The translations under genes and the position numbers were made by a program. DNA of 41,656 bases from an uncultured Methanomassiliicoccales archaeon (GTDB taxonomy: Archaea > Thermoplasmatota > Thermoplasmata > RBG-16-68-12 > CAYFXO01). The notes under the pieces are model-generated. The model made no database searches and had not been told where the DNA came from. It worked only from the letters and a program-made list of their open reading frames with translations. The stretch spans positions 1 to 41,656 of the forward strand of contig CAYFXO010000005.1 in NCBI GenBank assembly GCA_964347125.1, in the 5' to 3' direction. Shown piece after piece: positions 6,674 to 34,206 of the stretch. Each line of letters starts with the position of its first letter. Position 1 is the first letter of the stretch.

Positions 6674-6676
6674 TCC

Positions 6677-7147: not shown

Positions 7148-7171
7148 TGCCCGTCAATCCGAGCCTCCACT

Positions 7172-7178: not shown

Positions 7179-7201
7179 TTGCGGGGGGGCCCGACAAACG
7201 G

Positions 7202-11600: not shown

Positions 11601-13871
11601 GTATCCCTGCTGGAAGTTCCCGAAGAAGTTCCCCTTGTAGCTCGTGCTCAGAGGGGATGTCACCAAGAGGTCTAGGTTGTTCACAAGGGCAGAGTCCGTC
11701 CCGACGGATGCGGGGTAGTCGGACCACACCAGGGCGGCCTTGAAGCCCGCCAACGGTGAAGCCGCCCAGAAGCTGTAGGTGACGGATTGGCCCGTGTTCA
11801 GACCCTCCTTGTGCTCCACGACGCCCAGCTTCCGGCTCTCCCCGCTGAAATAGAGGGCGTTGTCCAGGACGGGGCGGCCCCAGCCCTGGGACCAGTTGGG
11901 CCACTTGAACTGGTTCTTGCTGTCCGAGTACTGGCCCGTCATCTGCTCCGCGGAGGCCACGAGCATGGCCTTCACGAGGGCGGCGGACGGGAGGAGGGTG
12001 TTCCCGGGGAGGGCGACGCCGTTGGGGTAGTAGCCGTCCGCGAAGTACTGGCGGATCATCGCGGCGGAGCCGGCGATGGCGGGGGCGGAGTAGCTCGTCC
12101 CCGTCCAGCCCTGCTCCCCGCCCGTGTTGCCGTTGGAGCCCGGGTCGCCGTCGGACTCCGCAGAGGTCCCCGAGAAGGGGGCCATGACCGTCGGCTTCGT
12201 CCGGCCATCCACCGTGGGGCCGCGACTGCTGCTGCCGTGGACGGCGTTCTGGCTCGCGTAGGCCACGGTGCCGCCCACAGAGACGGCGCTCTTCGCCGTC
12301 GCGGGGCTCCCAGCGTCGTGGGGGTCGGAGGACGTGGGCCCGCCGTTCCCGTTGGAGAAGATGATGAGCATGTCCTGGTTCTCCCACATGAACTTGTCCA
12401 CCATCATCGCCTCCAGGTCGTAGTCGGAGTTCTGGGAGCCCCAGCTGTTGGTGTGAATCCGCACCCCGTCGTTGTAGGGGAAGCTGAAGAGGAGCTCGTA
12501 GTCGTCGGGGATGTACCGGAGGATGTCGTCCCAGGCGTTCCCCAGGCGGGGGTTCTGCCCCACGGTGCCGATGTCCTGGACCCAGATCTTGGCCCCCTTC
12601 GCGACGCCGTCGTTGTTGCTGCCGGCGACGGGGTCGTCATTCCCCGCGGCGACGCTGGAGACGAGGGTGCCGTGGCCGGTGGTGCAGTTGTTGAGGAAGA
12701 AACAGTCGAAGCCGCTCTTCCAATCGCTGTCGCGGGTCGCGTAGATGTCCTTCGACGGGTCGACGCCCTGGGACCAGCTCATGGGCATGTAGCGGATGAC
12801 CTTCCGGTGGGTCGGGTTGGTGACATTGTCCACACTCCCGATCTGGGCGGGGCTCTGCCGGAACTGGTTGTGGTCGTAGTCCAGTCCCGTGTCGGCGACG
12901 GCGATGAGCTGGCCTGTGCCGTCGATGCCGTAGCTGTTCCAGAGCTTCCTCGCCGAGGGGTCGCCGATGGGAATCGTGTTCCCCGAGAGGTTCGTCTGCA
13001 TGACGGCCTGGGTCTCGTAGTTCGTGAGGCGCATCTCCTCCCAGGGCTCGACGTACTGGACGACCCGAAGGTTGGCGATCATCGGGAGGAGGTCCGCCGG
13101 GAGGCGGGCCTTCACGACCCCGAAGCTGGCCGCGACGGTGGAGCGGACGATGCCGGGGTTCGCGAGGTCGTCGTAGTCTACCCAGCCCATACCGGCCTTC
13201 CCCAGGGCGGCCAGGACGGGGCCGAGGGACTCGCCGCCGAACGTGATGACCTTGACTTCAACGAGGCCCGCCGCCTCCCGGAGGCGCGGCTGGATCTTGT
13301 AGGCGGGCTGGTAGGGACCGTGCCACCCCACGAAGGGGAGGTCGTCCAAGGCCGCGGGGACGGGCCCCCGGAAGTCCACGATGAATGCGCTGGTGGGCAC
13401 GTAGTCGAGGACGCGCCCGCCGAGGCGCTCCACGGCGTGGACCCACGAGTCCTTCACGGGTCCGATGAACTGCACCAGGTGGTAGCCCCACTCCCGCTCC
13501 AGGGCCGCGGGGACGCGGAGGTCGGAGGGAAGGTCCGGCTCCCCCCCTTGGGTGTCGAACTCGTAGCCGTCGATGCCGATACGTCCCGCGGGGAACGGCT
13601 GGACGAAAGCCCCCAGCCGCTCCAGGCTCGCCACCTGGCTCTCTGTGACTTCGGCGAGGAGGAAGGCGTGGTACTCCACCAGGGGGTCCGGGACCAGGGC
13701 GCGGAGGTCCGCCTGCGCCGCGAGGTCGGGAGCGAAGACGAGGGCGGTCTGCACCGGGTCCTCCTCGCTGCCCGCCCGACCCGCGTGAATCGCGAGGGCG
13801 GAGAGAACGAGGACGATCGCGACGGTGACGGTCGAAAACCTGACGATACCTGCCCCTAGGCGCTGCCGCAT
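8628..13871 (-). CDS. Secreted multidomain subtilisin-like serine protease (peptidase S8), 1747 aa
   Basis: ATG at 13871 with GGAGGAGG 7-14 nt upstream. Signal/anchor VTVAIVLVLSALAIHAG. Catalytic triad motifs appear in S8 order: AVADTGLDYDH (Asp), TTGHGTLVSS (His), GTSYSAPAIAGSAA (Ser). Downstream are Fn3-like segments (VTWDTDEPSDSVVYYG; NVRASLVG..WDLS..YEVWFG) and several Ig-like segments. Confidence 0.9.
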   Translation of the reverse strand: MRQRLGAGIVRFSTVTVAIVLVLSALAIHAGRAGSEEDPVQTALVFAPDLAAQADLRALVPDPLVEYHAFLLAEVTESQVASLERLGAFVQPFPAGRIGIDGYEFDTQGGEPDLPSDLRVPAALEREWGYHLVQFIGPVKDSWVHAVERLGGRVLDYVPTSAFIVDFRGPVPAALDDLPFVGWHGPYQPAYKIQPRLREAAGLVEVKVITFGGESLGPVLAALGKAGMGWVDYDDLANPGIVRSTVAASFGVVKARLPADLLPMIANLRVVQYVEPWEEMRLTNYETQAVMQTNLSGNTIPIGDPSARKLWNSYGIDGTGQLIAVADTGLDYDHNQFRQSPAQIGSVDNVTNPTHRKVIRYMPMSWSQGVDPSKDIYATRDSDWKSGFDCFFLNNCTTGHGTLVSSVAAGNDDPVAGSNNDGVAKGAKIWVQDIGTVGQNPRLGNAWDDILRYIPDDYELLFSFPYNDGVRIHTNSWGSQNSDYDLEAMMVDKFMWENQDMLIIFSNGNGGPTSSDPHDAGSPATAKSAVSVGGTVAYASQNAVHGSSSRGPTVDGRTKPTVMAPFSGTSAESDGDPGSNGNTGGEQGWTGTSYSAPAIAGSAAMIRQYFADGYYPNGVALPGNTLLPSAALVKAMLVASAEQMTGQYSDSKNQFKWPNWSQGWGRPVLDNALYFSGESRKLGVVEHKEGLNTGQSVTYSFWAASPLAGFKAALVWSDYPASVGTDSALVNNLDLLVTSPLSTSYKGNFFGNFQQGYSVTGGGFDATHPVETVYLPAPLASAGQWTVTITGANVPAGPQPFALVVLADLDLGWGQVFMDREVYSESDTITIRVQDTNAASVQVSMTSTTETTPEVVSLAETVGGSGLWQGTITTAFGAVAADGVLQVHHGDTVTASYSDVSPVHTATADAIIDAAGPRVTGVQVIDITNAAATVTWDTDEPSDSVVYYGKTTGLELGSVSLAALQVDHAVDLISLETGTQYFFDVESTDWFGHSTRDDNGGAHYSFTTTEKGEILLVIGDSTILPDRIGHYGDAFDAYAWSYNLWHVERSGDPPLSVLQEYKVVAWQVGLEQYPPFEPSSRQLLTDYLDNGGRLYVSSHDVAWGFDTDAPNNEEYSDASTDAWLHSTMKADWLQDPQRWLEMQGVSGRFISGAYLGVNRIPYEPHRDGGSGDEVAMLAAGGTTEDIWEDFGDTEDGIPGTVGLQWTSSLPNGTFGIGVWGGMLSKLVVNFFEFSGMNYQTDNDATRNEVMDKTIQWLLDQRDHPDLTVSYPNGGETFSGNVANIYWNVTTYGGTNVNTQGVYYSPNSGQSWFFIAPLGAAPRSYAWDISSLPNGCGYQVRVVAQDNGIPSLNGTDASNGDFCITRPGGDAQGPVVVPGSVTLSPNPATQGAALTFAATVDDSLKGASDVHAITPAEFFIDATGADGTGTPMSLVNPPTSSAEDVEWSTPAAPWSGGTHTLYVHGQDEWGNWGPFQSLSFEVLGTGPVPPQAPTNVRASLVGVASGDVLIQWDLSISEPDVLNYEVWFGTTYDASTATYVFLGSVAGGVASFTHSGAGDGDPNSYFYCVLATNAAGDSACAGQAAKYTRMLQAGPQLVSVPIQPADPSVTAVFGTAEYRWVKAFDACGSQEWVSYDVGKQTNTLATVSRDAGYWVDSLSAGLWTVAGTVPTSTQVSLCDGWNLIGYASMTDDAVGSVLGAVSWERVEGYDTGTAPYYLQQLGAADLMTNGFGYWVLVTGDQPPFTITF

Positions 13872-14845: not shown

Positions 14846-15170
14846 GGACCGGTGCTAGGCCACTGGGGTTGACGCCCGACTCCGATGAAGGGTGATCAGA
14901 GACCTTCTCGACCCCGTGACCCCGCGAGCGCCGGTAGTCCGCGGTGAGGCTGCTCACTTCCGTGCCTGGCCCAGTCCCCGCGACTGGAACGGGGGATACG
15001 ACCCTCCGGTCGCACCCGTCGTCGCCACCTGCCCCGCGGGACAAGGTCTCACGGTCGATCCCCGGCCCGTTCGCCGTGCCGGATACGCCGCCCCCAGCTG
15101 TCACCCCCGCGTATTGGCGATTTCGGGTGACAGGGGACGCCAAGCCCCCCGGTCAAGCCTAGCACCTTTC
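14846..15170 (-). ncRNA. Signal recognition particle RNA (archaeal 7S RNA)
   Basis: Read on the minus strand. The terminal helix pairs GGUGCUAGGC (15166-15157) with GCCUAGCACC (14860-14851). Helix-8 motif CCAGGCACGGAAGUGAGCAGCC carries a GGAA tetraloop and AGCAGCC. Helix-6-like hairpin GCGACC-GGAG-GGUCGU carries a GGAG tetraloop. Long helix-5 pairings are present (GAGACCUU/AAGGUCUC). A TATA box lies ~25 nt upstream. Ends are +/- 5 nt. Confidence 0.88.
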
Positions 15171-20790: not shown

Positions 20791-21330
20791 GTGGACCTCC
20801 TGAACATCCGGATGCCCGTCATGGAAATCATGTCCAAGACGCCCCACAGCATCCCGCCGGAGAGCACCGTCCTCGACGCGGCGGCGGCCATGCGGGACCA
20901 CGGCGTGGGCAGCCTCCTCGTGGTCTCCGGCGGCGCCCCCGTGGGCATCATCACCGAGCGGGACGTGGTGTCGAAGGTGGTGGCGGAGAACGGCCTCCCC
21001 TCCGACTTCCCCGTGTCCCAGATCATGTCCCACCCCGTCATCTCCATCCACCCCCACAAGGAGGTCGTCCAGGCCGCGCGGACGATGGCGGACAACCGCA
21101 TCCGCCGCCTGGCGGTCATGGACGGGGACAAGCTGGTGGGCATCGTCACGGAGAACGACATCCTCCAGGTGTGGCCCCGCCTCATCGAGATCACCCGGGA
21201 GGCCGCCGCCATCGGCGCCGGCGAGCCCTCCGGGGCGACGTTGGGGTACTGCGAGGTGTGCGGCGTCTTCTCTGAGACCCTCGCGCTGGAGGACGGCCAG
21301 GCCCTTTGCCGAGAGTGCCGCGAAGGATAG
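20791..21330 (+). CDS. CBS-domain pair protein with a C-terminal zinc ribbon
   Basis: Two CBS repeats are present (VMEIMSKTPHSIPPESTVLDAAAAMRDHGVGSLLVV; VSQIMSHPVISIHPHKEVVQAARTMADNRIRRLAVM). C-terminus is CEVCG...CRECR. Starts at GTG 20791; ATG 20812 is an alternative. Confidence 0.85.
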   Translation: MDLLNIRMPVMEIMSKTPHSIPPESTVLDAAAAMRDHGVGSLLVVSGGAPVGIITERDVVSKVVAENGLPSDFPVSQIMSHPVISIHPHKEVVQAARTMADNRIRRLAVMDGDKLVGIVTENDILQVWPRLIEITREAAAIGAGEPSGATLGYCEVCGVFSETLALEDGQALCRECREG

Positions 21331-21788: not shown

Positions 21789-22145
21789 ATGGCGACACTC
21801 GAAGAGATGTTGGGCACGCTGAACGACGAATGTGGGGCCACGGCCTCGGCGGTGGTGAGCAAGGACGGGCTTGTGCTCGCGTCCTCCATGCCCGACGACA
21901 TCGCGCCGGAGACCTTCGGGATCATGACGGCCACGATCCTGGGCGCCAGCATCACCGCGTCTTCGGAGATCAAGAACCCCGCCCCCAGCCGAGTGGTCAT
22001 CGAGAGCGACAGCTCCCGGACGATCATCTTCAATGCCAGCCGCCGCAGCATCCTCGTGGTCGTCGTGCCCGGAGACGTCGTCCCGGACGATGTGGCGAAC
22101 CTGTCCAAGACGATCCTGGCCGAGGTGGCCAAGGGGCAGTCCTAG
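21789..22145 (+). CDS. Roadblock/LC7 (MglB-like) domain protein
   Basis: LNDECGATASAVVSKDGLVLASSMPDDIAPETFGIMTATILGAS... is a typical Roadblock/LC7 fold signature. It starts 3 nt after the V4R gene. Confidence 0.8.
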   Translation: MATLEEMLGTLNDECGATASAVVSKDGLVLASSMPDDIAPETFGIMTATILGASITASSEIKNPAPSRVVIESDSSRTIIFNASRRSILVVVVPGDVVPDDVANLSKTILAEVAKGQS

Positions 22146-22165
22146 CCCCTCCAGTCTTTTATATT

Positions 22166-22196
22166 CCACAAGGCGTGTACAAATCAGATTAAATAG
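22166..22196 (+). promoter_or_regulatory. Locus-specific promoter/operator, site 1: ACAA-N-GTACAAAT-N4-TTAAATAG
   Basis: GTACAAAT at 22177-22184, then 4 nt, then TATA TTAAATAG at 22189-22196. An upstream ACAA lies at 22168-22171. The same architecture occurs at 23264-23295 and 29194-29225. Confidence 0.6.
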
Positions 22197-22285
22197 TAGG
22201 CGCCACTAACGAGAAGTGCCGAGGGGGTAGGCCCACGAGGTATACCCAGGTCGCCGCGGTCGCATCCCTTTTCGTCGTAGCGGGC

Positions 22286-23221
22286 GTGCTACTCCTTGGC
22301 GCGGCCGCGGCCTACCGGGAGAGCCGGCCGGTGGCGGACATCGGCATGGACAACCAGCTCCAGCTCTTCCTGCGCCTCCAGGTCCCCGTGGACGTCGTGG
22401 AGAGCGGGGACACCCTCCCCTTCGACGTCCTCGTTGAGGACCAGCACGCGAACCCCGTCCCCGGCGCCCACGTCCGAGTGTGGTGGGAGGGCGCCCTGGC
22501 GGTGTCCCCCACGGAGGCGGCGACGGACTCGCAAGGACGGGCCCGGTTCCACCTCACGAGCCCCGACGGCACGGAGGGGCAGTTCCTCCTCCAGTTCGAG
22601 GTGGAATACCCGGAGGCCATCCCCGACGCCGCGACCATGGAATTCCTCATCTTCACCCCGCCCGCCCCGACGCCGGTCTCCCAGGACGTCCAGGTGGTCT
22701 CCGCGGGCCTCGCGATTCTCGGCCTGGCGGCCCTGGCCGGCTCCGAGGCGGGGCGGTACGGGCTCTTCAACGCCCTGGTCTTCCCCCTCTACACCCGCCT
22801 GAAGCGTGAGGAGGTCCTGGACCACTTCGTCCGGGGCCAGATCTACGGCCACATTCTCTCGAACCCCGGGGAGCACTACACCGCGATCCGGGAGCGCCTC
22901 AAGGTCACGAACGGCACCCTCTCCCACCACCTCCGCACGCTGGAGGTCCAAGGCTTCATCCAGTCCCGCCGGGAGGGGACCCGGAAGCGGTTCTACTCCG
23001 TGAACATGGTCCTCCCCCGGGACCGGGGGATCCGCCTGAGCGACCTGCAGCTGGAGATGCTGGAGCGGATCGACGGCGGCGACGGGCCGACGCAGAAGGA
23101 CATCGCGGACGCCGTGGGGACGAGCCAGCAGTCCGTGAGCTACAACCTGCGGGCCCTCCTCCAAGAGGAGAAGGTGCGGGTCGAGCGAGAGGGGCGGAAG
23201 AAGCGCTACTACCCCTCGTAG
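22286..23221 (+). CDS. Membrane-bound transcriptional regulator: extracytoplasmic Ig-like domain, TM helix, two cytoplasmic wHTH domains
   Basis: Ig-like (Big_1-type) segment VLVEDQHANPVPGAHVRV...ATDSQGRARFHLTSPDGTEG. TM helix VVSAGLAILGLAALAGS. wHTH 1: GQIYGHILSNPGEHYTAIRERLKVTNGTLSHHLRTLEVQGFIQSRREGTRKRFY. wHTH 2: PTQKDIADAVGTSQQSVSYNLRALLQEEKVRVEREGRKKRYY. The first canonical start is GTG 22286, but the frame is open from 22193 (see findings). Confidence 0.75.
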   Translation: MLLLGAAAAYRESRPVADIGMDNQLQLFLRLQVPVDVVESGDTLPFDVLVEDQHANPVPGAHVRVWWEGALAVSPTEAATDSQGRARFHLTSPDGTEGQFLLQFEVEYPEAIPDAATMEFLIFTPPAPTPVSQDVQVVSAGLAILGLAALAGSEAGRYGLFNALVFPLYTRLKREEVLDHFVRGQIYGHILSNPGEHYTAIRERLKVTNGTLSHHLRTLEVQGFIQSRREGTRKRFYSVNMVLPRDRGIRLSDLQLEMLERIDGGDGPTQKDIADAVGTSQQSVSYNLRALLQEEKVRVEREGRKKRYYPS

Positions 23222-23263
23222 GGCCCTGGCCTCCCCGGGGCTCACCGCAACCGCCTTATAGTC

Positions 23264-23295
23264 CCACAAACGGGCGTACAAATTTCTTTTTATAG
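23264..23295 (+). promoter_or_regulatory. Locus-specific promoter/operator, site 2
   Basis: ACAA at 23266-23269, GTACAAAT at 23276-23283, 4 nt, then TATA TTTTATAG at 23288-23295. Confidence 0.6.
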
Positions 23296-23416: not shown

Positions 23417-26236
23417 ATGGAATCGAGACGATTCGGTGCGATTGCCATGGTCTCCGTGACCGTGGCGCTCGCCCTCGTGGGTAGCAGCCTTTTCCTGGCC
23501 TACGCGGGCGCGCACAATGTGAGCGGGACACGTCAAGAGTTCGTCTTGCGCATCGGCGCCCAGGACGACATCGAGACGAAGAACATCTTTGGTCACTACC
23601 TCTCGCCTGATGTGTGGACGGCGAACGTGCTGGACCCCCTGTACGACGGGTTCCTGCAGGCGGACCCGGACACGGACCAGCTGCTTCCCTACATCGCGCG
23701 GGGCGTGGACTTCGACGAGAGCGGCACGCTCGAGCGGGACGAAGTCGGCGTCTTCGCGAAGCAGGCGGGATCGGACCAGAGAACGGTCACGATCTACTAC
23801 GACCTGAGCGGCGTCCAGTTCGACGACGGGACCCCGGCCACCGTGGAGGACCTCCTGTTCTCCTTCCACGCGGAAGTGAAGATCCCCACATCCATTAGCA
23901 AGGACGTGATCAAGGACCAGATGGGGCTGGCGGGTTCGAACTACTCCACGACCCGATGGCTCCACCTGTACCGGATGGACAACATGAACATCTGGGAGGA
24001 TGAAGGGACGGGCAATCCCTCCACGAATCCCGCCCGGGTGGCCCTGCAGTTCAAGCTCCAGGGCGACTTCTACAACTTCTACCGGGCGTCCACGAGCGTC
24101 ACCCTGTATCCGCGCTACCTGTGGGAAGGGACCGGCTCCTCGATTACGTGGGACAACCCCGGCTCCCGGTTCCACGGTCAGGTCGTGGACTGCACCCACG
24201 CGGACTGGGGCAACGCGCTGGACACCTCCACCTGGAACGGTGTGCCGGAAGCGGACCCCGCGGCGTGGGACTTGGACAGCGCCTCCCAGTGGACCGTGCC
24301 CGACGGCTGCATGATCGGGACGGGCCCGTACGTGTGGGACCAGTGGATCCCGGGCAGCTTCGCGAAGCTGAACCGGAACCCCCAGTTCTTCTCGACGGTG
24401 GACGGGGCGGGATACGAGTACATCCACGCGCCGTTCCTGGACGGGATGCGCTACCAGATCTACAAGACGGTCCAGGCCGCGGTGTTCGCCCTCCAGGCGA
24501 ACGAGATCGATGTGATCTCGTGGTCCATCCCACCCGACCAAGTGGCGGACCTGCAGAACAACCCGGACATCACCGTGAGCAGCAACGCGGAGAAGGGCTT
24601 CTTCTACCTGGCGTACCACATGCAGATCGCCGGCGGCGCGCCGTGGGCCTATGAGGACGGCGATCCGACGAAGGCGGACATCGGCATCCCCTTCCGCCAG
24701 GCGGTGGCCCACACCATCGACAAGCGGCAGATCGTCACCTCGCTGTTGCAGAACTTCGGCGTCATCGCGGACGGCGTCGTGTCGCCCGTGTCGACGCGGT
24801 GGTACAACTCGTCCCTGCCCCAGTACGACTTCGACCTGGCGCAGGCGGCGGCCATCCTGGACACGTTCTCGACGGACCCGGGAGGCACCTGTCAGCAGGA
24901 CGGGACCGGGTGCCGGAGCTTCGTGGGCATCGGGTCGTCCCTCTTCGACATCCAGTGCCCCCAGGCCGACTACGACCCCATCCGGGCCGCGGCGTGCAGC
25001 ATGATCGAGACCCAGATGCGGGCGGTCGGGATGAACGTGAAGGCGACGCACCTGGCCTTCTCCCAGATCACCCAGAACCTGGACAACCGGGACATGCGCA
25101 TGTGGATCCTCGGGTGGCGCATCGGCAGCGACCCGCCGGACTACCTCCACGCGTTCTTCTACTCGGGGAACTACCCCGACGGGCAGAACTACCCCGGCTA
25201 CGCCAACCCCGTGTTCGACCAGCTGGTGACGGACATCCGCGCGAACCTGGACCCCGACAGCCAGGCGGACCAAGTGAAGTACGCCCAGGGCATCATCTCC
25301 ACGGAGCTCCCGTACGACGTCCTGTACTACCGGACGAACATCGAGGCGTACCGGAACGACCGGACGAGCAACTGGACCGTGGGGGCGGCGGGTTCCATCT
25401 TCGGCGGTTCGTACTGGTCCTGGATCGGCGTGGAGCCGCCGAAGCCGGGATCGCTGCGGGCCACGGTCACCACGGAGACCGCCGTCGCTTCGGGCGGCAC
25501 GATCCCCGTGACGGCCACCGTGCGGGACCCGGACAACAGCCCCTTCGCCAACGCCGACGTGACCCTCCGGGCCACGGGCGGCACCTGGGCCAACCCGGGA
25601 GCCGACCCCCTGACCACCTCCGGAACGACCCTCTCCACGGGCAAGTTCACGGGCAACTACATCGCGCCCACGGTGACGACGAAGCAGAAGGTCTTCATCA
25701 GCGTCTCGGCGAGTGACCCCGGCGGCGTGTTCGGGGACTCCCTGGAGACCTCCGTCGTGGTCACGGTGTTCCCGCCCGGGGTGAGCTTCCTCTCGATTAC
25801 GGCCGACGCGACGAGCACCGTCGCCGAGGTCGGGGACGCCATCCTGATCGACGTGACGGTGCGCGACGAGGCGCGGGTCACCGTCGATACGGCCGACGTC
25901 GCCGTGGCGGTACAGCCGACGGCGAGCCCGGGAGCGACGCCCACCAGCGGGCAGACGGACTCGGCCGGGAGGATTCAGATCTCCTTCCAGGTCGATGACA
26001 TCGGCGGCGTGGAGTCGAAGGACTACCAGTTGACCTTCAACGCCACGAAGGCCGGCTTCGAACCTGCGCCGGGACGGGTCCTGGACCTGACCATCTTCGA
26101 ACCAGAAACTCCTGGTGGAACGGGAGGCGACGGCGGACCGGTGGTCCCCGCCCTTGACATGCTGGCCGTCCTCGCGGTGGTCGGCACCCTGGCGGTGGCC
26201 TACGGCTACGTCCGAGAACGAGGGAAGAGGGAGTAG
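23417..26236 (+). CDS. ABC transporter substrate-binding protein, family 5 (Opp/Dpp-type), with C-terminal Ig-like repeats and a TM anchor (copy 1)
   Basis: ATG at 23417 with GGAGG at 23406-23410 (track start GTG 23366 is possible). Signal/anchor FGAIAMVSVTVALALVGSSLFLAYAG. The SBP_bac_5-like core has GTGPY, FAKLNRNPQFF and NPDITV. The tail has two Big_1-like repeats and the TM helix LDMLAVLAVVGTLAVAYGYV. Confidence 0.85.
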   Translation: MESRRFGAIAMVSVTVALALVGSSLFLAYAGAHNVSGTRQEFVLRIGAQDDIETKNIFGHYLSPDVWTANVLDPLYDGFLQADPDTDQLLPYIARGVDFDESGTLERDEVGVFAKQAGSDQRTVTIYYDLSGVQFDDGTPATVEDLLFSFHAEVKIPTSISKDVIKDQMGLAGSNYSTTRWLHLYRMDNMNIWEDEGTGNPSTNPARVALQFKLQGDFYNFYRASTSVTLYPRYLWEGTGSSITWDNPGSRFHGQVVDCTHADWGNALDTSTWNGVPEADPAAWDLDSASQWTVPDGCMIGTGPYVWDQWIPGSFAKLNRNPQFFSTVDGAGYEYIHAPFLDGMRYQIYKTVQAAVFALQANEIDVISWSIPPDQVADLQNNPDITVSSNAEKGFFYLAYHMQIAGGAPWAYEDGDPTKADIGIPFRQAVAHTIDKRQIVTSLLQNFGVIADGVVSPVSTRWYNSSLPQYDFDLAQAAAILDTFSTDPGGTCQQDGTGCRSFVGIGSSLFDIQCPQADYDPIRAAACSMIETQMRAVGMNVKATHLAFSQITQNLDNRDMRMWILGWRIGSDPPDYLHAFFYSGNYPDGQNYPGYANPVFDQLVTDIRANLDPDSQADQVKYAQGIISTELPYDVLYYRTNIEAYRNDRTSNWTVGAAGSIFGGSYWSWIGVEPPKPGSLRATVTTETAVASGGTIPVTATVRDPDNSPFANADVTLRATGGTWANPGADPLTTSGTTLSTGKFTGNYIAPTVTTKQKVFISVSASDPGGVFGDSLETSVVVTVFPPGVSFLSITADATSTVAEVGDAILIDVTVRDEARVTVDTADVAVAVQPTASPGATPTSGQTDSAGRIQISFQVDDIGGVESKDYQLTFNATKAGFEPAPGRVLDLTIFEPETPGGTGGDGGPVVPALDMLAVLAVVGTLAVAYGYVRERGKRE
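24454..25461. repeat. 1008-bp tract 100% identical to 27343-28350 (copy A)
   Basis: Base-by-base comparison at both borders and at sampled internal lines. The off-frame track ORFs are identical (24649..24888 = 27538..27777; 24651..25004 = 27540..27893). Constant offset of 2889 nt. Confidence 0.9.
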
Positions 26237-26263
26237 GCTCCCTCTCCCCCTCTCAACCTTTTT
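26227..26263 (+). terminator. Stem-loop spanning the stop codon of copy 1, followed by a T5 run (possible partial terminator/attenuator between the two binding-protein genes)
   Basis: GAGGGAG-TAGG-CTCCCTC (26227-26244) is a perfect 7-bp stem. A pyrimidine-rich tail follows, with TTTTT at 26259-26263. Confidence 0.35.
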
Positions 26264-26302
26264 CCCCTCTTTCGGTCATCCAGGGGAAAGGGAGGAGTGG
26301 AC

Positions 26303-29110
26303 ATGGAACCCAGAAGCCCCGCGAGGCGAAGCGTAGCCCTCGTCCTAGCCATAGCCGCCGCGCTGCTGGCCGGGACGGTCTTCGCGACCGCCGCCGCGGC
26401 CTACGATAGGAACGGGACACGTCAGGAGTTCGTCCTGCGCATCGGCGCCCAGGACGACATCGAGACCAAGAACTTCTTCGGGAACGCGCTGTCGCCGGAC
26501 GTGTGGACGGCGAACGTCCTGGGGCCCCTCACGGACGGGGTCCTGCAGGCGGACCCGGACACGGACCAACAGCTGCCCTACGTCGCCCGGGGCGTGGACT
26601 TCGACGAGGACGGCACCTTCGAGCGGGACGAGGTCGGGGTGTTCGGGAAGCAGGCGGGGACGAACCAGCGGGTCGTCACGGTCTACTACGACCTGAACGG
26701 GGCGGAGTTCCACGACGGGACGCAGGCGACGGTGGAGGACCTGATGTTCTCGTACCACGCCACGACGAAGATCCCCACGGTCATCAGCAACGACGTGATC
26801 AAGGACCAGGCGGGCCTCGCGGGGTCGAACTACTCCACGACCCGGTGGCTCCACATCTACAAGTTGGACCCGCTGAACGTGTGGGAGGATGAGGGGACGG
26901 GCTCCCCGTCGGGCGACCCCTACCGCGTGGCCCTCCAGTTCCAGTTGCAGGGCGACTACTACGACTTCTACCGGAGCACGATCTCCGTCGGTCTCCTGCC
27001 GCGGGCCCTCTGGGAAGGGACGGGGGCGAGCATCATCTGGAACAACCCCGGCTCGCGGTTCAACGGACAGACGGTGGACTGCACCCACGCGGACTGGGGT
27101 CAGGTCCTCGACACCTCGATCTGGAACGGCGTGCCGGAGACCGCCCCGAACGCCTGGGACCTGAACGGGGCTGCGGAGTGGACCGTCCCCGACGGCTGCA
27201 TGATCGGGACGGGCCCGTACGTGTGGGACCAGTGGGTCCCGGGGAGCTTCGCGAAGCTGAACCGGAACCCCCAGTTCTTCACCACGGTGGACGCGAGCGG
27301 CTACGAGTACATCCACCCGCCCTTCCTGGACGGGATGCGGTTCCAGATCTACAAGACGGTCCAGGCCGCGGTGTTCGCCCTCCAGGCGAACGAGATCGAT
27401 GTGATCTCGTGGTCCATCCCACCCGACCAAGTGGCGGACCTGCAGAACAACCCGGACATCACCGTGAGCAGCAACGCGGAGAAGGGCTTCTTCTACCTGG
27501 CGTACCACATGCAGATCGCCGGCGGCGCGCCGTGGGCCTATGAGGACGGCGATCCGACGAAGGCGGACATCGGCATCCCCTTCCGCCAGGCGGTGGCCCA
27601 CACCATCGACAAGCGGCAGATCGTCACCTCGCTGTTGCAGAACTTCGGCGTCATCGCGGACGGCGTCGTGTCGCCCGTGTCGACGCGGTGGTACAACTCG
27701 TCCCTGCCCCAGTACGACTTCGACCTGGCGCAGGCGGCGGCCATCCTGGACACGTTCTCGACGGACCCGGGAGGCACCTGTCAGCAGGACGGGACCGGGT
27801 GCCGGAGCTTCGTGGGCATCGGGTCGTCCCTCTTCGACATCCAGTGCCCCCAGGCCGACTACGACCCCATCCGGGCCGCGGCGTGCAGCATGATCGAGAC
27901 CCAGATGCGGGCGGTCGGGATGAACGTGAAGGCGACGCACCTGGCCTTCTCCCAGATCACCCAGAACCTGGACAACCGGGACATGCGCATGTGGATCCTC
28001 GGGTGGCGCATCGGCAGCGACCCGCCGGACTACCTCCACGCGTTCTTCTACTCGGGGAACTACCCCGACGGGCAGAACTACCCCGGCTACGCCAACCCCG
28101 TGTTCGACCAGCTGGTGACGGACATCCGCGCGAACCTGGACCCCGACAGCCAGGCGGACCAAGTGAAGTACGCCCAGGGCATCATCTCCACGGAGCTCCC
28201 GTACGACGTCCTGTACTACCGGACGAACATCGAGGCGTACCGGAACGACCGGACGAGCAACTGGACCGTGGGGGCGGCGGGTTCCATCTTCGGCGGTTCG
28301 TACTGGTCCTGGATCGGCGTGGAGCCGCCGAAGCCGGGATCGCTGCGGGCGACCCTGACGACGGCCTCCGCCGTCGCCTCCGGGGGGAGCGTGTCCGTCT
28401 CGGCGACGGTCCGCAACCCGGACAACGACCCGGTGGCGGGGATGGATGTGACCCTCCGGGCCACGGGAGGCACGTGGCAGAACCCGGACCCGAACGACCC
28501 CAACGGCCTGACGACGAAGGGGACCACCCTGGTGACTGGGAAGTTCACCACGAACTACATCGCGCCCACGGTGACGACGAAGCAGAAGGTCCCCATCACC
28601 GTCCAGGCGAAGGACCCGAACGGGATCTTCGGCGAATCCCTCGAGACCTCCCTCATCCTCACCGTATTCCCCGCGGGGGTGGACTTCCTCTCGGTGAGCG
28701 TGGACCCCACGAGCGACCTGACCGTGGAAGGGGACCCCGTCCTCATCACGGTCACCGTGCGGGACCAGGACCAGATCCCCGTGGGCGCTTCCGACGTCGC
28801 CGTGACGGTGCAGCCCACGGCCAGCCCGGGCGCCAGCCCCACGACGGGGCCGACGGACGCCTCGGGGCTGATCCAGGTGACCTTCCAGGTGGATGACATC
28901 GGCGGCGTCCCGTCCAAGGCCTTCGAACTCACCTTCAACGCCACGAAGGCGGGCTACGCGGAGGCGCCGGGCCGCATCCTGGAGGTGAACGTCCTTGAGC
29001 TGGAGGAGACGCCGCCCCCGCCGGACGGCATCCCCGCCCTGGAGATCGCCGTCGTGGTCATGGCCATCCTCGCGGTGGCGGTCATCGTGCGTTGGCGGCA
29101 GCGCTGGTAG
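26303..29110 (+). CDS. ABC transporter substrate-binding protein, family 5, with C-terminal Ig-like repeats and a TM anchor (copy 2)
   Basis: ATG at 26303 with GGAGG at 26291-26295 (track start GTG 26297). Same architecture as copy 1. C-terminal anchor is IPALEIAVVVMAILAVAVIVRW. Confidence 0.85.
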   Translation: MEPRSPARRSVALVLAIAAALLAGTVFATAAAAYDRNGTRQEFVLRIGAQDDIETKNFFGNALSPDVWTANVLGPLTDGVLQADPDTDQQLPYVARGVDFDEDGTFERDEVGVFGKQAGTNQRVVTVYYDLNGAEFHDGTQATVEDLMFSYHATTKIPTVISNDVIKDQAGLAGSNYSTTRWLHIYKLDPLNVWEDEGTGSPSGDPYRVALQFQLQGDYYDFYRSTISVGLLPRALWEGTGASIIWNNPGSRFNGQTVDCTHADWGQVLDTSIWNGVPETAPNAWDLNGAAEWTVPDGCMIGTGPYVWDQWVPGSFAKLNRNPQFFTTVDASGYEYIHPPFLDGMRFQIYKTVQAAVFALQANEIDVISWSIPPDQVADLQNNPDITVSSNAEKGFFYLAYHMQIAGGAPWAYEDGDPTKADIGIPFRQAVAHTIDKRQIVTSLLQNFGVIADGVVSPVSTRWYNSSLPQYDFDLAQAAAILDTFSTDPGGTCQQDGTGCRSFVGIGSSLFDIQCPQADYDPIRAAACSMIETQMRAVGMNVKATHLAFSQITQNLDNRDMRMWILGWRIGSDPPDYLHAFFYSGNYPDGQNYPGYANPVFDQLVTDIRANLDPDSQADQVKYAQGIISTELPYDVLYYRTNIEAYRNDRTSNWTVGAAGSIFGGSYWSWIGVEPPKPGSLRATLTTASAVASGGSVSVSATVRNPDNDPVAGMDVTLRATGGTWQNPDPNDPNGLTTKGTTLVTGKFTTNYIAPTVTTKQKVPITVQAKDPNGIFGESLETSLILTVFPAGVDFLSVSVDPTSDLTVEGDPVLITVTVRDQDQIPVGASDVAVTVQPTASPGASPTTGPTDASGLIQVTFQVDDIGGVPSKAFELTFNATKAGYAEAPGRILEVNVLELEETPPPPDGIPALEIAVVVMAILAVAVIVRWRQRW
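27343..28350. repeat. 1008-bp tract 100% identical to 24454-25461 (copy B)
   Basis: See copy A. Confidence 0.9.
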
Positions 29111-29193: not shown

Positions 29194-29225
29194 CGACAAT
29201 CGGGTGTACAAATGACGTTAAATAG
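29194..29225 (+). promoter_or_regulatory. Locus-specific promoter/operator, site 3
   Basis: ACAA at 29196-29199, GTACAAAT at 29206-29213, 4 nt, then TATA TTAAATAG at 29218-29225. ATG 29259 is preceded by GGGGAGG. Confidence 0.6.
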
Positions 29226-29258: not shown

Positions 29259-30956
29259 ATGAGGATTTGGAGGTACCTGGCCAGGCGTGCCATCCAAACC
29301 GTCATCACCCTGATCGTGGTCGTCATCCTGCTCTTCGTCATCTTCCGCCTGATGCCCGGCGACCCGACGCGGTTCTTCATCCAGCCCGGGCAGACCCAGG
29401 AGAACATCGACCGCCTCTGCATCCAGTTCGGGCTCTGCAAGGCCGTCCCCGCGCAGGGCACGGACTACGAGTCGGCGTTCAACACGAACGACCTGGGGGC
29501 CTACGAGATCGTCATCACCGTGAGGGACAGGAGGGACAACGTGGGGACGTTCTACGCCGCCCATACGCGGGAGCCCGGCTTCCCCCCGGGCGCCCTGGGC
29601 ATCGTCAACATCTCCGCCTCCCCGTACCACATCGTCAACGTCACGGACGCGGTGGTGCTGAACGCGGAGCCCCGGGTGCCGGGCGGCGGACCGTTCAACC
29701 TGTGGGCGGTGATCGAGTATCCCGACAGCTCGATGGACAACGTCACCCTCGCCCCCACTGGCTCGGTATACTACCAGGCCACCTTCACCCCCGACCAGGC
29801 GGGGGTCTACCGCATCACGTTGGGCATCCAGGCCGCCGGCTCCATCGAACGCGCCCCCTTCACCGTCGCGGCCAACGACCTCCCGGCGGACTTGGACCCA
29901 TTCCTCCTTCAGGACGACCACGTCTACATCGAGCGGGTTCTGACGGGGACGCAGGTCGTGGACCCGTTCCGGAACCGGGTCCATGTGAGCGTCGTCTCCA
30001 CCGCGGCGGGGGGCGGCCTCGGCTCCATCCAGAACGTCACGGCGACCATCACGTCCCACACGTGGGACACCCAGGGGGACGGGGGACAGGGGGCCTACGG
30101 GGCGTTCTCCGTGGTCGTCGAGAACCTCCCCTTGATTCACGTGGACGAGGTCGTGCGTACGACGGCGTGGGAGCAGTTCGTCCCCTACTTGCAGTCCATG
30201 CTGACGTTCGACTTCGGGAACTCCTTCTTCAGCCGGCAGCCGGTCATCGACGAAATCTCCCAGCGGATCCCCCCGACCCTCCTGTTGTTCGGCAGCGCCC
30301 TCATCCTCTCCACCTTCATCGGGGTCGCCCTGGGCGTCCTCCTGGCGTGGTACCGGGGGACGAAGTTTGAGATGAGCGCCATCGTGGTGTCCCTCTTCTT
30401 CTACTCCATGCCCCTGTTCTGGTTCGGCCTCATCCTGCTGTGGGCCTTCGGCTTCCGCCTGGGCTGGTTCCCCCTCGGCGGCATGATCACGCCGGGGCTA
30501 TGGGAAGGGGGCCCCCCGGACATCGGCACCCAGATCCTCGACATCGGCCGCCACCTGGTGCTGCCCCTCGCCACCCTGATGATCCTGGGGCTCGCGGGGA
30601 CGATCCTCCTCATGCGGAACTCCATGCTAGAGGTCCTGGGGGAGGACTACATCACCACCGCGAAGGCGAAAGGGCTCTCGGAGCGGCAGGTCATGTACCG
30701 CCACGCGGCGCGAAACGCCCTCCTCCCCGTCACGACGGCGGTGGCCATCGCCGCCGGAGGGGTCATCAGCGGGGGCGTCCTCACGGAGACGATCTTCTCC
30801 TGGCCCGGGATGGGCTTCTACCTGGTCAACCGCACCCTGCGCCAGGACTACCCCGCCATCCAGGCCACCTTCTACATCCTGGCCATCCTGACCATCATCG
30901 CGAACTGGGTCGCCGACATGCTGTACGCCGTGCTGGACCCCCGGGTGAGGTTGTAG
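29259..30956 (+). CDS. ABC transporter permease (DppB/OppB-type) with a ~240-aa extracytoplasmic insertion
   Basis: N-terminus MRIWRYLARRAIQTVITLIVVVILLFVIFRLMPGDP is the canonical DppB head. The C-terminal core has the EAA-like loop ITTAKAKGLSERQVMYRHAARNALLP. 565 aa, versus ~310-340 for typical family members. Confidence 0.9.
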   Translation: MRIWRYLARRAIQTVITLIVVVILLFVIFRLMPGDPTRFFIQPGQTQENIDRLCIQFGLCKAVPAQGTDYESAFNTNDLGAYEIVITVRDRRDNVGTFYAAHTREPGFPPGALGIVNISASPYHIVNVTDAVVLNAEPRVPGGGPFNLWAVIEYPDSSMDNVTLAPTGSVYYQATFTPDQAGVYRITLGIQAAGSIERAPFTVAANDLPADLDPFLLQDDHVYIERVLTGTQVVDPFRNRVHVSVVSTAAGGGLGSIQNVTATITSHTWDTQGDGGQGAYGAFSVVVENLPLIHVDEVVRTTAWEQFVPYLQSMLTFDFGNSFFSRQPVIDEISQRIPPTLLLFGSALILSTFIGVALGVLLAWYRGTKFEMSAIVVSLFFYSMPLFWFGLILLWAFGFRLGWFPLGGMITPGLWEGGPPDIGTQILDIGRHLVLPLATLMILGLAGTILLMRNSMLEVLGEDYITTAKAKGLSERQVMYRHAARNALLPVTTAVAIAAGGVISGGVLTETIFSWPGMGFYLVNRTLRQDYPAIQATFYILAILTIIANWVADMLYAVLDPRVRL

Positions 30957-30957
30957 G

Positions 30958-33900
30958 ATGGCGGGGCGCAGCAAGTGGAAGGAGCGCTACCGGGCGTACG
31001 CGAAGGTCTTCAAGCAGAACTGGGAGCTCTACAAAGCGAGCCGCATCGGGCTCGTGGGCATCGCCATCATCATCTTCTTCCTCCTCATGGCCCTCTCTGC
31101 CCCGTACCTAGGCTTGCGTGACCCCATTGGGTGGTTCGCCCCCGACGAGGACATTATCGCGGTGGACCAGTACCACCCCCCAGGCATCGATACGGGAGTG
31201 CCCCCCTACAACGTCCGCACCACCCCTATCACCGAAGAGATCACCTTCCGCCTCCGACCGAAGTCGGAGGAGCCTCGTACGGACCGTGTCTATGTCACCA
31301 CGGACGACCACATCTACGCCATCCGTCCCATCACGGGCATCCAGAACTGGCTCTTCCCCGGTAATTTCACCGCCGACGGGACGATCACGACCCCCGTCGT
31401 GGTGATCAACTTCGGCCACCACACGGAGCCGGACAAGGCCGACTTCGTCCTGTACTTCGGCACGGAACAGGGCACCCTCTACGCCCTGAACGACTCGAAC
31501 ACCCAGATCGGGAACGTCCCCGTGGGGCAGAACGCCTTCTCCGTCGCCTTGGACGGGAGCCCCGTGGAGTCTGTGGCGGCCTACTCCTTGGACATTGAGG
31601 CGGGGCGGCGGGGGAGCGTCCGCATCGAACAGGACAACACTCCTGACTTGGATGGCGTCGACACTCCCTTTGCTGTCGACCTAGGCGGGTCCTTCCAGAT
31701 CTACTATTCCGGCAACAACTCGGAGGAGGACAGGTGGGGCATTCTGAGCCTGAGTTCCCGGGACGGGTTGAGATTCGTGCGTGGCGGCTCGAAGGGAGCA
31801 AACGATGTGTTCAGTACCCCGAGCCTCTGGGATGGGGAGGGGGAGATGGATCCGTACGTCTTCCAGGATTCGCTCGGTAGCTGGCTGATGTACTACGTTG
31901 GATTCGATGGTTCGGCGTACCGCATTCTCCGGGCCACATCCCCGGATAGGCTCGACTGGACGAAAGCCGCTACCCCCGTCCTATCGTCCTCACGGCCCGA
32001 GGACGCCGCAGGCATGCGCCGCCCCTGGCTCGTCCGCGAGCCCGGGCTCTGGACCCTGCTGTATGCCGGATATGACGGGACGATGTGGAGACTCCTTAGC
32101 GCGACATCAACGGATGACGGGGCGAATTGGTCCGGCCCCTCGGTCGTCCTGGATGACGCCCGCCACCCGACGGTCTACGAACCGGAACCGGGTTCTGGGA
32201 ACTACACAATGGTCTATACGGCCAACGTCTCCGGCGCGCCCCGCCTCTTCGAGACCACCTCGATGGACCCGGGGGTTTGGTCTCCCGGCGTCGAGATCGT
32301 GGGTCCGGGAGACGCCCTTCGCCTCGTGGACACGGGTCACCCAATCTTCGACCCCCTCAGTCTGGAGGCCCAGATCTCTCAAGGGGCCCAGAGCCCGATG
32401 GTGCTTCCCCTGGAGGACGGGAGTTTCCGCATGTACTACGTCTCCCCCTACTTCGAGCAGCGGGCAGGGGGAGAGGACATGGCCGCCATCGTGACCCAGA
32501 CCTCCCCAGACGGTCTCATGTGGATTCGCGAGCACAAGGACCTCTACGTGGCGACCACGCAAGCGGGCTGGGTGTATGCATTCTCCGCGGTAGACAACCA
32601 ACTCCTGTGGCAACGGAAGATCAGCGACCTACCCACCCGGGTGTCCGGCACCCCCCTCATCCCCGCGAATGACCCCACCTACTCCTCGGCCTTCGACCGG
32701 GACGGCGCCATCGTCGTGGTGGGGACCCAAGACGGGGAGATTCATGGGCTCCGGACGAGGGACGGCGTGCTCGCCTGGGAGGACCCCTTCCACCTGGGCC
32801 TGCCCGAAGGAGGGACCTGGTGGACGCCCCCTGTCGTAGCGGAGCAGTCCGCCATACCCATCGCGAACGGGACAGACTTCACCGACGTGGCGTACGCAGC
32901 TTCCAGCGATGGATGGCTATACGCGGTCTTCGTCAAGGACGGGCAGCTGATCCCCCATTGGAAGGACTCCGCATCGGGGTGGGAGCGAGAGATCGGCATC
33001 CCCGTCCGGGATGCGGGAGGGGACCTCGACTTGGGGAACCTGTCCGCCCCATCCGTGCGCGGGACCACCCTCTACGTAGGGTCGTCCACGGGGCGAGCCT
33101 ACGCCCTCTACCGTGACAATGTGGGCCTCACCATCAAGGCGGGAGACACGAAATGGGAATTCGGAGACGAGGCCCTCCGGGACAAGAACGCCACGTTCGC
33201 CATCCGTCCCACGAACTGGAACCCGCTAGACTTGGTCTTCTTCGTCGCGAACCACGACAACGGGACCGAGAACGACCCCACGGACGACCGGTCCGCGGTG
33301 TACAGCATCGCCTTGGACGGCGAAATCTCGTGGAAACAGAACTTCGAGGGCCACGTCGCCGGGCCTGTCATCGTCTGGCGCTCTGAGGAGCCCGTGTCGG
33401 GCACCCAGGGGCAGCTCCAGCCCGCCGTCTGGTTCGGGACGGACCACGGCATCGTATACGCGTACTCCGCGGCGGGGAAGGTCATCGCACCACTTCCGCC
33501 CACCTGGCTCCGCCCGGTGCAGAGTGGCAACGTCTACTGGCTCGGGACGGACGATCGGGGGCGGGACCTGTTCAGCCAGCTCATGTACGGCGCGCAGATC
33601 GCCCTCATCGTCGGCTTCCTGGCGGCCTTCTTCTCGATCTCCATCGGCGTCATCATCGGCCTCGTGGCCGGCTACTCCGGCGGGCGGGTGGAGTCCATCC
33701 TCATGCGGTTCACCGACGTCATCCTCGTCCTGCCCGGCCTCCCGTTGGTCATCATCCTGGCCGCCGTCCTCGGCGCGAACATCTGGAACATCATCTTCGT
33801 CATCGCCATCGTCGGGTGGCCCGGGGTCGCCCGCGTCATCCGCGCCGAGGTCCTCTCCCTCAAGGAGCGGCCCTTCATCGATTCCGCCCGGGTCACGGGC

Positions 33901-34206
33901 GCGAGCAACATCCGGATCATGTTCCGGCACGTGGCCCCGAACATCCTCCCCCTCGCGTTCCTGTACATGACCTTCGCGGTGAGCGGGGCCATCCTCACGG
34001 AGGCGGCCCTGAGCTTCATCGGGCTCGGGGACGTGAACACCCCCTCCTGGGGCCAGATGCTGGAGGCCATCCAGCGGGCCAATGTGTTGGGGTCGTGGTG
34101 GTGGCTCCTTCCACCGGGGCTGGGCATCACGTTCCTGTCCCTGGCCTTCTACCTCGTCGGGCGCGGCTACGAGCAGATCGTCAACCCGCGGCTGAGGGCA
34201 CGGTGA
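30958..34206 (+). CDS. ABC transporter permease (DppC/OppC-type) with a ~805-aa extracytoplasmic beta-propeller insertion
   Basis: OppC-type N-terminal helix RIGLVGIAIIIFFLLMALSAPYLGLRDP. The canonical continuation NVYWLGTDDRGRDLFSQLMYGAQIAL appears only ~800 aa later. The permease core has SARVTGASNIRIMFRHVAPN. 1082 aa, versus ~280-300 typical. Confidence 0.9.
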   Translation: MAGRSKWKERYRAYAKVFKQNWELYKASRIGLVGIAIIIFFLLMALSAPYLGLRDPIGWFAPDEDIIAVDQYHPPGIDTGVPPYNVRTTPITEEITFRLRPKSEEPRTDRVYVTTDDHIYAIRPITGIQNWLFPGNFTADGTITTPVVVINFGHHTEPDKADFVLYFGTEQGTLYALNDSNTQIGNVPVGQNAFSVALDGSPVESVAAYSLDIEAGRRGSVRIEQDNTPDLDGVDTPFAVDLGGSFQIYYSGNNSEEDRWGILSLSSRDGLRFVRGGSKGANDVFSTPSLWDGEGEMDPYVFQDSLGSWLMYYVGFDGSAYRILRATSPDRLDWTKAATPVLSSSRPEDAAGMRRPWLVREPGLWTLLYAGYDGTMWRLLSATSTDDGANWSGPSVVLDDARHPTVYEPEPGSGNYTMVYTANVSGAPRLFETTSMDPGVWSPGVEIVGPGDALRLVDTGHPIFDPLSLEAQISQGAQSPMVLPLEDGSFRMYYVSPYFEQRAGGEDMAAIVTQTSPDGLMWIREHKDLYVATTQAGWVYAFSAVDNQLLWQRKISDLPTRVSGTPLIPANDPTYSSAFDRDGAIVVVGTQDGEIHGLRTRDGVLAWEDPFHLGLPEGGTWWTPPVVAEQSAIPIANGTDFTDVAYAASSDGWLYAVFVKDGQLIPHWKDSASGWEREIGIPVRDAGGDLDLGNLSAPSVRGTTLYVGSSTGRAYALYRDNVGLTIKAGDTKWEFGDEALRDKNATFAIRPTNWNPLDLVFFVANHDNGTENDPTDDRSAVYSIALDGEISWKQNFEGHVAGPVIVWRSEEPVSGTQGQLQPAVWFGTDHGIVYAYSAAGKVIAPLPPTWLRPVQSGNVYWLGTDDRGRDLFSQLMYGAQIALIVGFLAAFFSISIGVIIGLVAGYSGGRVESILMRFTDVILVLPGLPLVIILAAVLGANIWNIIFVIAIVGWPGVARVIRAEVLSLKERPFIDSARVTGASNIRIMFRHVAPNILPLAFLYMTFAVSGAILTEAALSFIGLGDVNTPSWGQMLEAIQRANVLGSWWWLLPPGLGITFLSLAFYLVGRGYEQIVNPRLRAR

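Follow-up and report, generated by a model that had tools for sequence, protein, structure and literature searches.

Described regulators and the present locus

Archaeal transcription factors for which both a binding site and a regulon have been defined are very few. Membrane-tethered transcription regulators are widespread by census, and the archaeal ones cited as characterised are ArnR and ArnR1 only (PMC10269533). In Sulfolobus acidocaldarius, these two proteins are membrane-bound one-component activators of the archaellum promoter, and both ArnR boxes are needed for binding (PMC6396743). Another set of factors, comprising TFB-RF1 (P. furiosus), EarA (Methanococcus), the ara-box factor (Sulfolobus) and Ptr2 (M. 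jannaschii), recruits TFB or TBP from just 5' of the TFB recognition element (BRE) and TATA box (PMC5512572). Furthermore, the Thermococcales glycolytic motif (TGM) illustrates that the position of an operator relative to BRE/TATA decides the outcome (PMC4158304, PMC4706686). Herein, we describe a composite promoter element in a 41,656-nt stretch of DNA from an uncultured Methanomassiliicoccales archaeon. This stretch, referred to as the window, corresponds to positions 1-41,656 of the forward strand of contig CAYFXO010000005.1 (assembly GCA_964347125.1; 68% G+C; GTDB lineage Archaea; Thermoplasmatota; Thermoplasmata; RBG-16-68-12; CAYFXO01). The element precedes three genes of an Opp/Dpp-type peptide ATP-binding cassette (ABC) transporter locus, namely the regulator gene (REG), the gene of substrate-binding protein (SBP) 1 and that of permease 1. 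With a probability of roughly 65%, we read it as a combined operator and core promoter that would be recognised by the adjacent REG protein, which would control its own gene and activate transcription through TBP/TFB recruitment.

Comparison with the described systems places the locus between several of them. Like ArnR, REG appears to be a membrane-tethered archaeal factor associated with two cis boxes 5' of BRE/TATA and with the genes of a cell-surface system. However, ArnR runs from an N-terminal cytoplasmic helix-turn-helix (HTH) through a HAMP-like region to C-terminal transmembrane (TM) helices, whereas the order in REG is reversed: ectodomain, TM helix, two winged helix-turn-helix (wHTH) domains. 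In addition, the two boxes of ArnR are arranged as inverted repeats (TCGAC-N5-GTCGA, -43 to -84), whereas those of the REG locus are direct repeats held 4 nt from the TATA box. With the EarA/TFB-RF1 group, the locus shares a site directly 5' of the core promoter, short repeated boxes and a locus-specific regulon, and the EarA site, TACATA in four copies, resembles TACAAA; yet EarA, TFB-RF1, the ara-box factor and Ptr2 are soluble, whereas REG is a predicted membrane protein.

Among bacterial regulators, ToxR and CadC place wHTH domains on direct repeats beside the core promoter, and BcrR governs the ABC transporter next to it. REG resembles these proteins (PMC10269533) in that a sensor, extracytoplasmic or within the membrane, is coupled to a DNA-binding domain in one polypeptide. 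It differs from them in DNA-binding family (MarR/ArsR-like plus HVO_0163_N-like, as against OmpR-like or XRE) and in promoter type (archaeal TATA/BRE, as against bacterial sigma-70), and the combination of tandem wHTH domains in one chain with an immunoglobulin (Ig)-like ectodomain is specific to the REG family. Like TrmB and TrmBL1 (PMC4158304, PMC4706686), REG is an archaeal wHTH regulator whose gene adjoins a binding-protein ABC transporter. TrmB, however, is soluble, carries a sugar-binding domain and reads the palindromic TGM, TATCAC-N5-GTGATA, which is not found in the three promoters. Likewise, where a MarR/ArsR homodimer has a palindromic operator, the REG locus has direct repeats and two wHTH domains per chain. 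Several promoters of functionally related genes share the site, that of a DNA-binding protein among them, and the system may be classed from its sequence features as the autoregulated local operator of a one-component regulator of unusual architecture. A literature search for the REG family and for the motif found no description of either.

The element and its three sites in the window

A pattern search with GTACAAATNNNNTTWWATAG matched the window three times, always on the + strand (22177-22196, 23276-23295 and 29206-29225). No further match was present in the window even at 2 mismatches, and 100 dinucleotide-preserving shuffles of the window gave 0 matches. The three sites and the TATA-like boxes upstream of two of them are composed as follows.

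22155-22165, + strand: upstream TATA-like box TCTTTTATATT of the REG promoter, a remnant of an upstream module ('module A'), with equivalents in L001, L005, L011, L038 and others
22168-22172, + strand: site 1 distal box ACAAG (ACAA at 22168-22171), 5 nt from the proximal box
22177-22184, + strand: site 1 proximal box GTACAAAT, followed by N4 = CAGA
22189-22196, + strand: site 1 TATA box TTAAATAG of the REG promoter, 4 nt after the proximal box
23243-23261, + strand: degenerate upstream module of the SBP1 promoter, CACCGCAAC-N2-CCTTATAG (TATA-like part 23254-23261), 33-34 bp 5' of the main module
23266-23270, + strand: site 2 distal box ACAAA, 6 nt (from ACAA(A)) from the proximal box
23276-23283, + strand: site 2 proximal box GTACAAAT, followed by N4 = TTCT
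23288-23295, + strand: site 2 TATA box TTTTATAG of the SBP1 promoter, with a predicted 5' untranslated region of ~100 nt
29196-29199, + strand: site 3 distal box ACAA, 6 nt from the proximal box
29206-29213, + strand: site 3 proximal box GTACAAAT, followed by N4 = GACG
29218-29225, + strand: site 3 TATA box TTAAATAG of the permease/ATPase operon promoter, with the ATG at 29259 lying 33 nt downstream

All three sites conform to the consensus GTACAAAT-N4-TTWWATAG, and their TATA boxes are AT-rich 8-mers of the kind that, in archaeal core promoters, stands ~23-27 bp 5' of the transcription start. An ACAA box lies 5-6 nt 5' of GTACAAAT in every copy, so that the ACAA cores are 11-12 bp apart, or one helical turn. 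The two boxes form direct repeats (ACAAA ... GTACAAAT) with no dyad symmetry except an internal GTAC, and the proximal box occupies -12 to -5 relative to TATA, overlapping the upstream part of the BRE zone. The flanking DNA of the three sites is unrelated.

These results bear out most of what a preliminary description of the window had reported: exactly three copies at promoters of the ABC locus with correct coordinates, an exact 4-nt interval between GTACAAAT and TATA, and a second ACAA 11-12 nt upstream. Its remark that other TATA boxes lack GTACAAAT also holds, as none of eight further AT-rich TATA-like boxes in the window (at 7201, 8191, 13964, 14139, 14182, 15184, 16345 and 20763) carries the box. 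The boxless elements include those ahead of the signal recognition particle (SRP) RNA and several protein genes, and several have RAAA 2-3 nt from TATA; the A-tract of the motif lies 2 bp farther from TATA than in these generic RAAA-N2-3-TATA promoters. The G-rich pentamer that had been noted between the boxes is present in the window, but lower-GC orthologues have GAATC, AAGAC or ACGCC at that place; it therefore reflects base composition and does not belong to the element.

A further TATA-like box ~33 bp 5' of the main TATA is found at sites 1 and 2 and is conserved in orthologues. At site 1, it overlaps the T-run of a terminator-like hairpin 3' of the Roadblock gene. The SBP promoters and many REG promoters of orthologues carry a second complete module ~33 bp upstream, which in the SBP promoters takes the form GTACCAMWAA-N3-TTTWWATA. 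For instance, one tandem arrangement reads ACAAA-N5-GTACCACAA-N3-TTTTTATA followed by ACAAAA-N5-GTACAAAT-N4-TTTTTATA.

Conservation, specificity and register among relatives

Conservation was assessed in 85 orthologous loci (649 kb, both strands; fetched loci are numbered L001 onwards), which were chosen by protein similarity without use of the motif and comprise the contigs of individual REG homologues plus 80 loci from a metagenome scan with REG protein alignment. A relaxed core, [GC][TC]AC[AC]AA[AT]N4[TC]TWWATA, gave 83 matches in these loci, compared with 0.015 expected from base composition. The matches fell at REG (26), SBP (44) and permease 1 (3) promoters and nowhere else, except for 10 cases that are, by position, REG promoters or REG-downstream promoters at contig ends. 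None of the ~12 neighbouring promoters per syntenic locus carries the motif. In addition, the surrounding intergenic DNA has diverged, and the information profile of the orthologous promoters has peaks at the boxes, the TATA and the upstream module only. That the motif might be a generic strong-promoter variant, which the preliminary description had held open, is thereby ruled out. A lineage-wide generic BRE was likewise rejected, since the element is missing from the other window TATA-like boxes and from syntenic neighbours, and the 83 matches are confined to genes of the locus.

Conservation in related genomes, another point that the preliminary description had held open, is indeed found: orthologous promoters keep the motif down to ~38-50% REG identity, across dozens of species-level metagenome-assembled genomes (MAGs), and REG homologues are numerous in Thermoplasmata MAGs. 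The syntenic locus L001 (63% REG identity; CBS, V4R, Roadblock, REG, SBP) has GTACAAATcacgTTAAATAG 5' of REG and GTACAAATcaccTTTTATAC 5' of SBP, with CCCACAA upstream of both. At ~50% identity, L002, L003 and L005 carry the motif ahead of REG, SBP and permease. In L004, the exact motif is present only at SBP, the REG promoter box is degenerate (ATCCCAAT), and the 72-nt gap between SBP and permease contains no copy. The proximal box varies by clade (GCACAAAT, GTACCAAT, CTACCAAW, ATCCCAAT), and the distal CACAA(A) is the more stable of the two boxes.

The register with the TATA box is strict. Across the protein-found loci, 67 of 69 distinct contexts have 4 nt between the proximal box and TATA, and 60 of 67 distinct orthologous promoters have the distal ACAA 5-6 nt ahead of the proximal box (6 nt in 56, 5 nt in 4). 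The region of the N4 spacer is class-specific: 7 of 8 distinct permease promoters share GTACAAATGACGTTAAATA unchanged, down to ~46% protein identity, the exception being L005 with TTATATA. Furthermore, the REG start codon follows the TATA 8-mer by 23 nt in ~25 lineages, a leaderless arrangement, and in high-GC lineages it follows by ~36 nt (32-41 nt) with a Shine-Dalgarno-like GGGGA ahead of it. Because REG starts are placed at such distances from it, the TATA of the motif appears to be the working core promoter.

A genome-scale search extended these results beyond the protein-found loci. The pattern ACAAN{5,6}GTACAAATNNNNTTWWATA was run against one genome per species (GTDB representatives, 596 Gb) and matched at least 117 stretches, ~45 of them from Thermoplasmata, Methanomassiliicoccales or 'Methanobacteriota' MAGs. 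Among the matches listed, these archaeal stretches had as their first gene on the 3' side a REG orthologue in 20 cases, an SBP orthologue in at least 22 and a permease 1 orthologue in 6, and the other matches listed came from AT-rich bacteria in unrelated contexts, as chance predicts for 596 Gb. The full regulon of the window organism is inferred from such relatives. The motif also occurs at SBP genes that have no linkage to REG or belong to SBP arrays (L034, L037, L085); in UBA147, for example, a motif-bearing SBP promoter (L037) and REG (L081) are on different contigs. Such unlinked genes indicate a factor acting in trans, whose small regulon consists essentially of peptide-transporter genes.

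A few further archaeal matches were noted among those listed. The full motif precedes a 1,053-aa PKD-domain secreted protein (L036 3718-6922), a 611-aa NosD/beta-helix secreted protein (L080, - strand, 2563-4454) and two small membrane proteins (L015 2363-3023 and L031 7279-7920), one of which lies directly after Opp ATPase genes. These may be extra regulon members or chance matches. Separately, a sister REG clade (L123, L126, L129-L139, L143-L149, L167, L200) has the promoter box CTACCAAWCGACCTAAATA; there, the gene after REG is not SBP but one for a secreted protein (…TRTITYPFIAGSFVIPMD…) whose family is unknown and whose promoter lacks the motif.

The regulator protein

REG combines a DNA-binding domain and a TM segment in one chain, the architecture of a transmembrane transcription regulator. 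Its Pfam matches are an Ig-like Big_1 region, HTH_HVO_0163_N and MarR_2/HTH_20 in that order; the TrmB match is limited to the HTH (26 bits) and includes no effector domain. In an alignment of 17 REG homologues, the N-terminal half is variable and the C-terminal half nearly invariant (FPLYTRLKKEEVLDHFVRGQIYG...NGTLSHHLRTLE...GIRLSDLQ...SQQxVSYNLR), and the near-invariant segments NGTLSHHLRTLE and SQQxVSYNLR correspond to the recognition helices of the two wHTH domains. An AlphaFold model of REG (mean predicted local distance difference test score 77) shows a beta-sandwich (residues 28-123) and a long helix (133-152) ahead of two winged-helix domains (170-238 and 251-310). In a structure search, the beta-sandwich was matched by S-layer, intimin and CARDB Ig-like domains; with the whole model, ectodomain matches dominated and no informative complex of tandem wHTH domains with DNA was returned. 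A PDB sequence search with REG gave generic wHTH matches only (best 5duk, E = 4e-5).

REG orthologues begin with a hydrophobic, signal-peptide-like segment ending in AxA, which together with the model would place the ectodomain outside the cell, followed by one TM helix and both DNA-binding domains inside. REG is thus likely a type-I membrane protein. In the window, the REG frame is open from 22193, and the first ATG, GTG or TTG is a GTG at 22286, a start that would exclude the signal/TM segment. The full N-terminus needs an in-frame ACG at 22235-22237, which lies 38 nt after TATA and right after GAGGGGG, where orthologues have ATG. An in-frame ACG also occurs at offset 35-39 in three other high-GC lineages (L159, L160 and L166/L172), suggesting either a conserved ACG initiation codon or a recurrent T-to-C change or error. 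In the sole public DNA run with window sequence, Logan contigs stop either side of 22145-22348 (depth ~5-7x); the run therefore gives no check of the REG start region, and independent sequence support is thin. An exact look-up of the called REG protein of the window retrieved no second contig, and a search of public RNA runs for window sequence returned no run with a match.

Proposed mechanism and alternative explanations

In the preferred reading, the operator would consist of ACAA(A), 5-6 nt and GTACAAAT, with box starts 11-12 bp apart and a fixed 4-nt register to TATA. The binder would be the adjacent REG protein, each wHTH domain reading one box, since two DNA-binding domains per chain could match two direct-repeat boxes one helical turn apart. 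REG would then control its own gene, the SBP gene or genes and the permease/ATPase operon, and an extracellular signal would set expression of the whole peptide-uptake system through it. Activation by recruitment of TBP/TFB is preferred as the mode of action because of the location of the site immediately 5' of TATA, the invariant 4-nt register and the precedent of EarA, TFB-RF1, the ara-box factor, Ptr2 and ArnR. A more elaborate version is rather unlikely in its entirety: a membrane-resident REG would act as a monomeric activator, bind one box with each domain and contact TBP/TFB at the 4-bp register. It would draw these genes towards the membrane into which the transporter proteins are inserted, and its Ig-like ectodomain would sense peptide via the C-terminal Ig-like region of SBP, while tandem 33-bp modules would give cooperative, high-gain induction. 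Were this so, an archaeal family of transmembrane transcription factors that is widespread but uncharacterised would gain its first defined regulon and mechanism.

Several points weigh against the preferred reading. The REG promoter of clade L179-L199 carries no recognisable copy of the motif, and drift of the proximal box is seen in another clade (ATCCCAAT, CTACCAAW). The autoregulation proposed in the preliminary description is therefore supported for most clades, which have the motif 5' of REG, but is not universal. Pairings between recognition helix and box (SHH to SYH with GTACAAAT to GTACCAAT; a 'MMGF' clade with CTACCAAW) each amount to a single evolutionary event, so that the co-variation is suggestive and does not count as evidence. 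A profile of the 16 nt 5' of 38 non-motif TATA-like boxes from high-GC loci showed no clear generic BRE against which the motif promoters might be called weak in BRE. Moreover, TrmB, which has been studied most among archaeal regulators of binding-protein ABC transporters, acts by repression. Finally, if the TATA-like box ~33 bp upstream is an active promoter, the operator sits between TATA and start, the classic position for a repressor.

The last two points lead to a reading that keeps the same operator and the same protein and reverses the sign: REG would block TFB at the BRE zone, and at the REG and SBP promoters also RNA polymerase between the upstream TATA-like box and its start, until an extracellular peptide signal releases it. 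We regard this as a serious rival, though well short of probable. The overlap of the proximal box with the BRE zone and the conserved second TATA-like box at these two promoters speak for it, and substrate-released repression is common for archaeal sugar ABC transporters (TrmB family). However, a register kept in 67 of 69 promoters exceeds the need of simple occlusion, the permease promoter has no upstream TATA-like box and yet keeps the element to the letter, and the REG start codon is positioned by the downstream TATA rather than by the upstream box. Less probable still, and unlikely overall, is an operator read by another trans-acting factor encoded elsewhere, such as an Lrp/AsnC-type or EarA-like protein, with REG merely a member of the regulon. 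Action in trans follows from motif-bearing SBP promoters at loci without REG nearby (L034, L037, L054, L066, L085), and the EarA site TACATA, as cited in PMC6396743, resembles the TACAAA core. Against such a factor, REG lies directly 5' of most motif-bearing SBP genes for which upstream sequence exists, and REG is also present in UBA147, the genome with the unlinked L037 promoter (REG in L081), and in CSMAG_2432, where the extra match of L015 stands ahead of an unrelated membrane protein (REG in L017). Furthermore, REG has as many DNA-binding domains as there are boxes, namely two, and its recognition helices vary as little as the motif does.

The remaining explanations dispense with a dedicated regulator. 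The fixed TATA register of the proximal box and its overlap with the BRE zone would fit a specialised core-promoter class in which an extended BRE is read by an alternative TFB/TBP paralogue. The motif is, however, confined to one functional gene set next to a DNA-binding protein, and a conserved distal ACAA lies ~21-26 bp 5' of TATA. TFB-BRE contacts reach roughly 7 bp, which leaves the distal box out of range and makes this class very improbable. As for chance similarity or the remnant of a recent promoter duplication in the window genome, SBP1 and SBP2 do show recent duplication or gene conversion at the locus. Nevertheless, both explanations are excluded by the shuffles (0 matches expected by chance), by the unrelated flanks of the three sites and by conservation of the motif at orthologous promoters in genomes with only 40-60% protein identity.

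Comparative genomics alone thus gives a precise operator, an exact TATA register, a small coherent regulon and a candidate tandem winged-helix binder. A soluble domain of 150 residues and DNA fragments of 60 bp would suffice for in vitro work on so small a system. Uncultured Thermoplasmata of this kind are thought to live on detrital protein, and the motif and REG may accordingly form a switch for peptide uptake in these organisms.

Gene cluster and further features of the window

By Pfam, the gene order is CBS, Roadblock/LC7, REG, SBP1, SBP2, permease 1, permease 2 and two Opp-type ATPases, at the following positions.

20791-21330: CBS protein (Pfam)
21789-22145: Roadblock/LC7 protein (Pfam)
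22235-23221, + strand: REG, predicted signal peptide/TM1, Ig-like ectodomain, TM helix and two wHTH domains
23417-26236, + strand: SBP1, SBP_bac_5 with a C-terminal Ig-like region and a membrane anchor
26227-26263, + strand: hairpin and T5 between SBP1 and SBP2
26297-29110, + strand: SBP2, family-5 substrate-binding protein
29259-30956, + strand: permease 1, BPD_transp_1
30958-34206, + strand: permease 2, with a large beta-propeller insertion
~34203-35510 and 35511-36716, + strand: two Opp-type ATPase genes (ABC_tran and oligo_HPY)

SBP1 and SBP2 are 80% identical overall and 100% identical over a central stretch of ~300 aa (residues ~384-683), which suggests recent gene conversion between the tandem paralogues. 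As the preliminary description had stated, SBP2 has no motif copy of its own, and no TATA-like box lies between 23295 and 29217. In the absence of such a box, read-through expression of SBP2 from SBP1 past the hairpin/T5 is plausible. Arrays of 2-3 SBP paralogues occur at L085 1147-7999 and L037 3467-8000, where, unlike the SBP2 of the window, the internal paralogue has its own motif promoter. The SBP1 5' leader (~100 nt) was considered as a riboregulator, and this idea was dropped because its fold is no better than that of shuffles (z = -0.22) and it has no Rfam match. The only Rfam gathering-level matches in the window are an archaeal SRP RNA at 14853-15164 (- strand, 181 bits) and a tRNA at 37839-37911 (- strand).

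Permease 2 is a protein of ~1,100 aa with a C-terminal permease domain and a PQQ_2 match at residues 530-720. Its orthologues (L002 15889-19215, L004 15841-19407) show Kelch-type matches, and the propeller region is kept across the clade; a beta-propeller is unusual in an Opp-type membrane component. Two very large open reading frames lie 5' of the locus, at 1044-7157 (- strand, 2,037 aa) and 8628-13871 (- strand, 1,747 aa). The syntenic locus L001 has a 1,755-aa Peptidase_S8 protein at the corresponding end, and the large frames of the window may likewise encode secreted proteases of large size, as would suit an organism that scavenges peptides.

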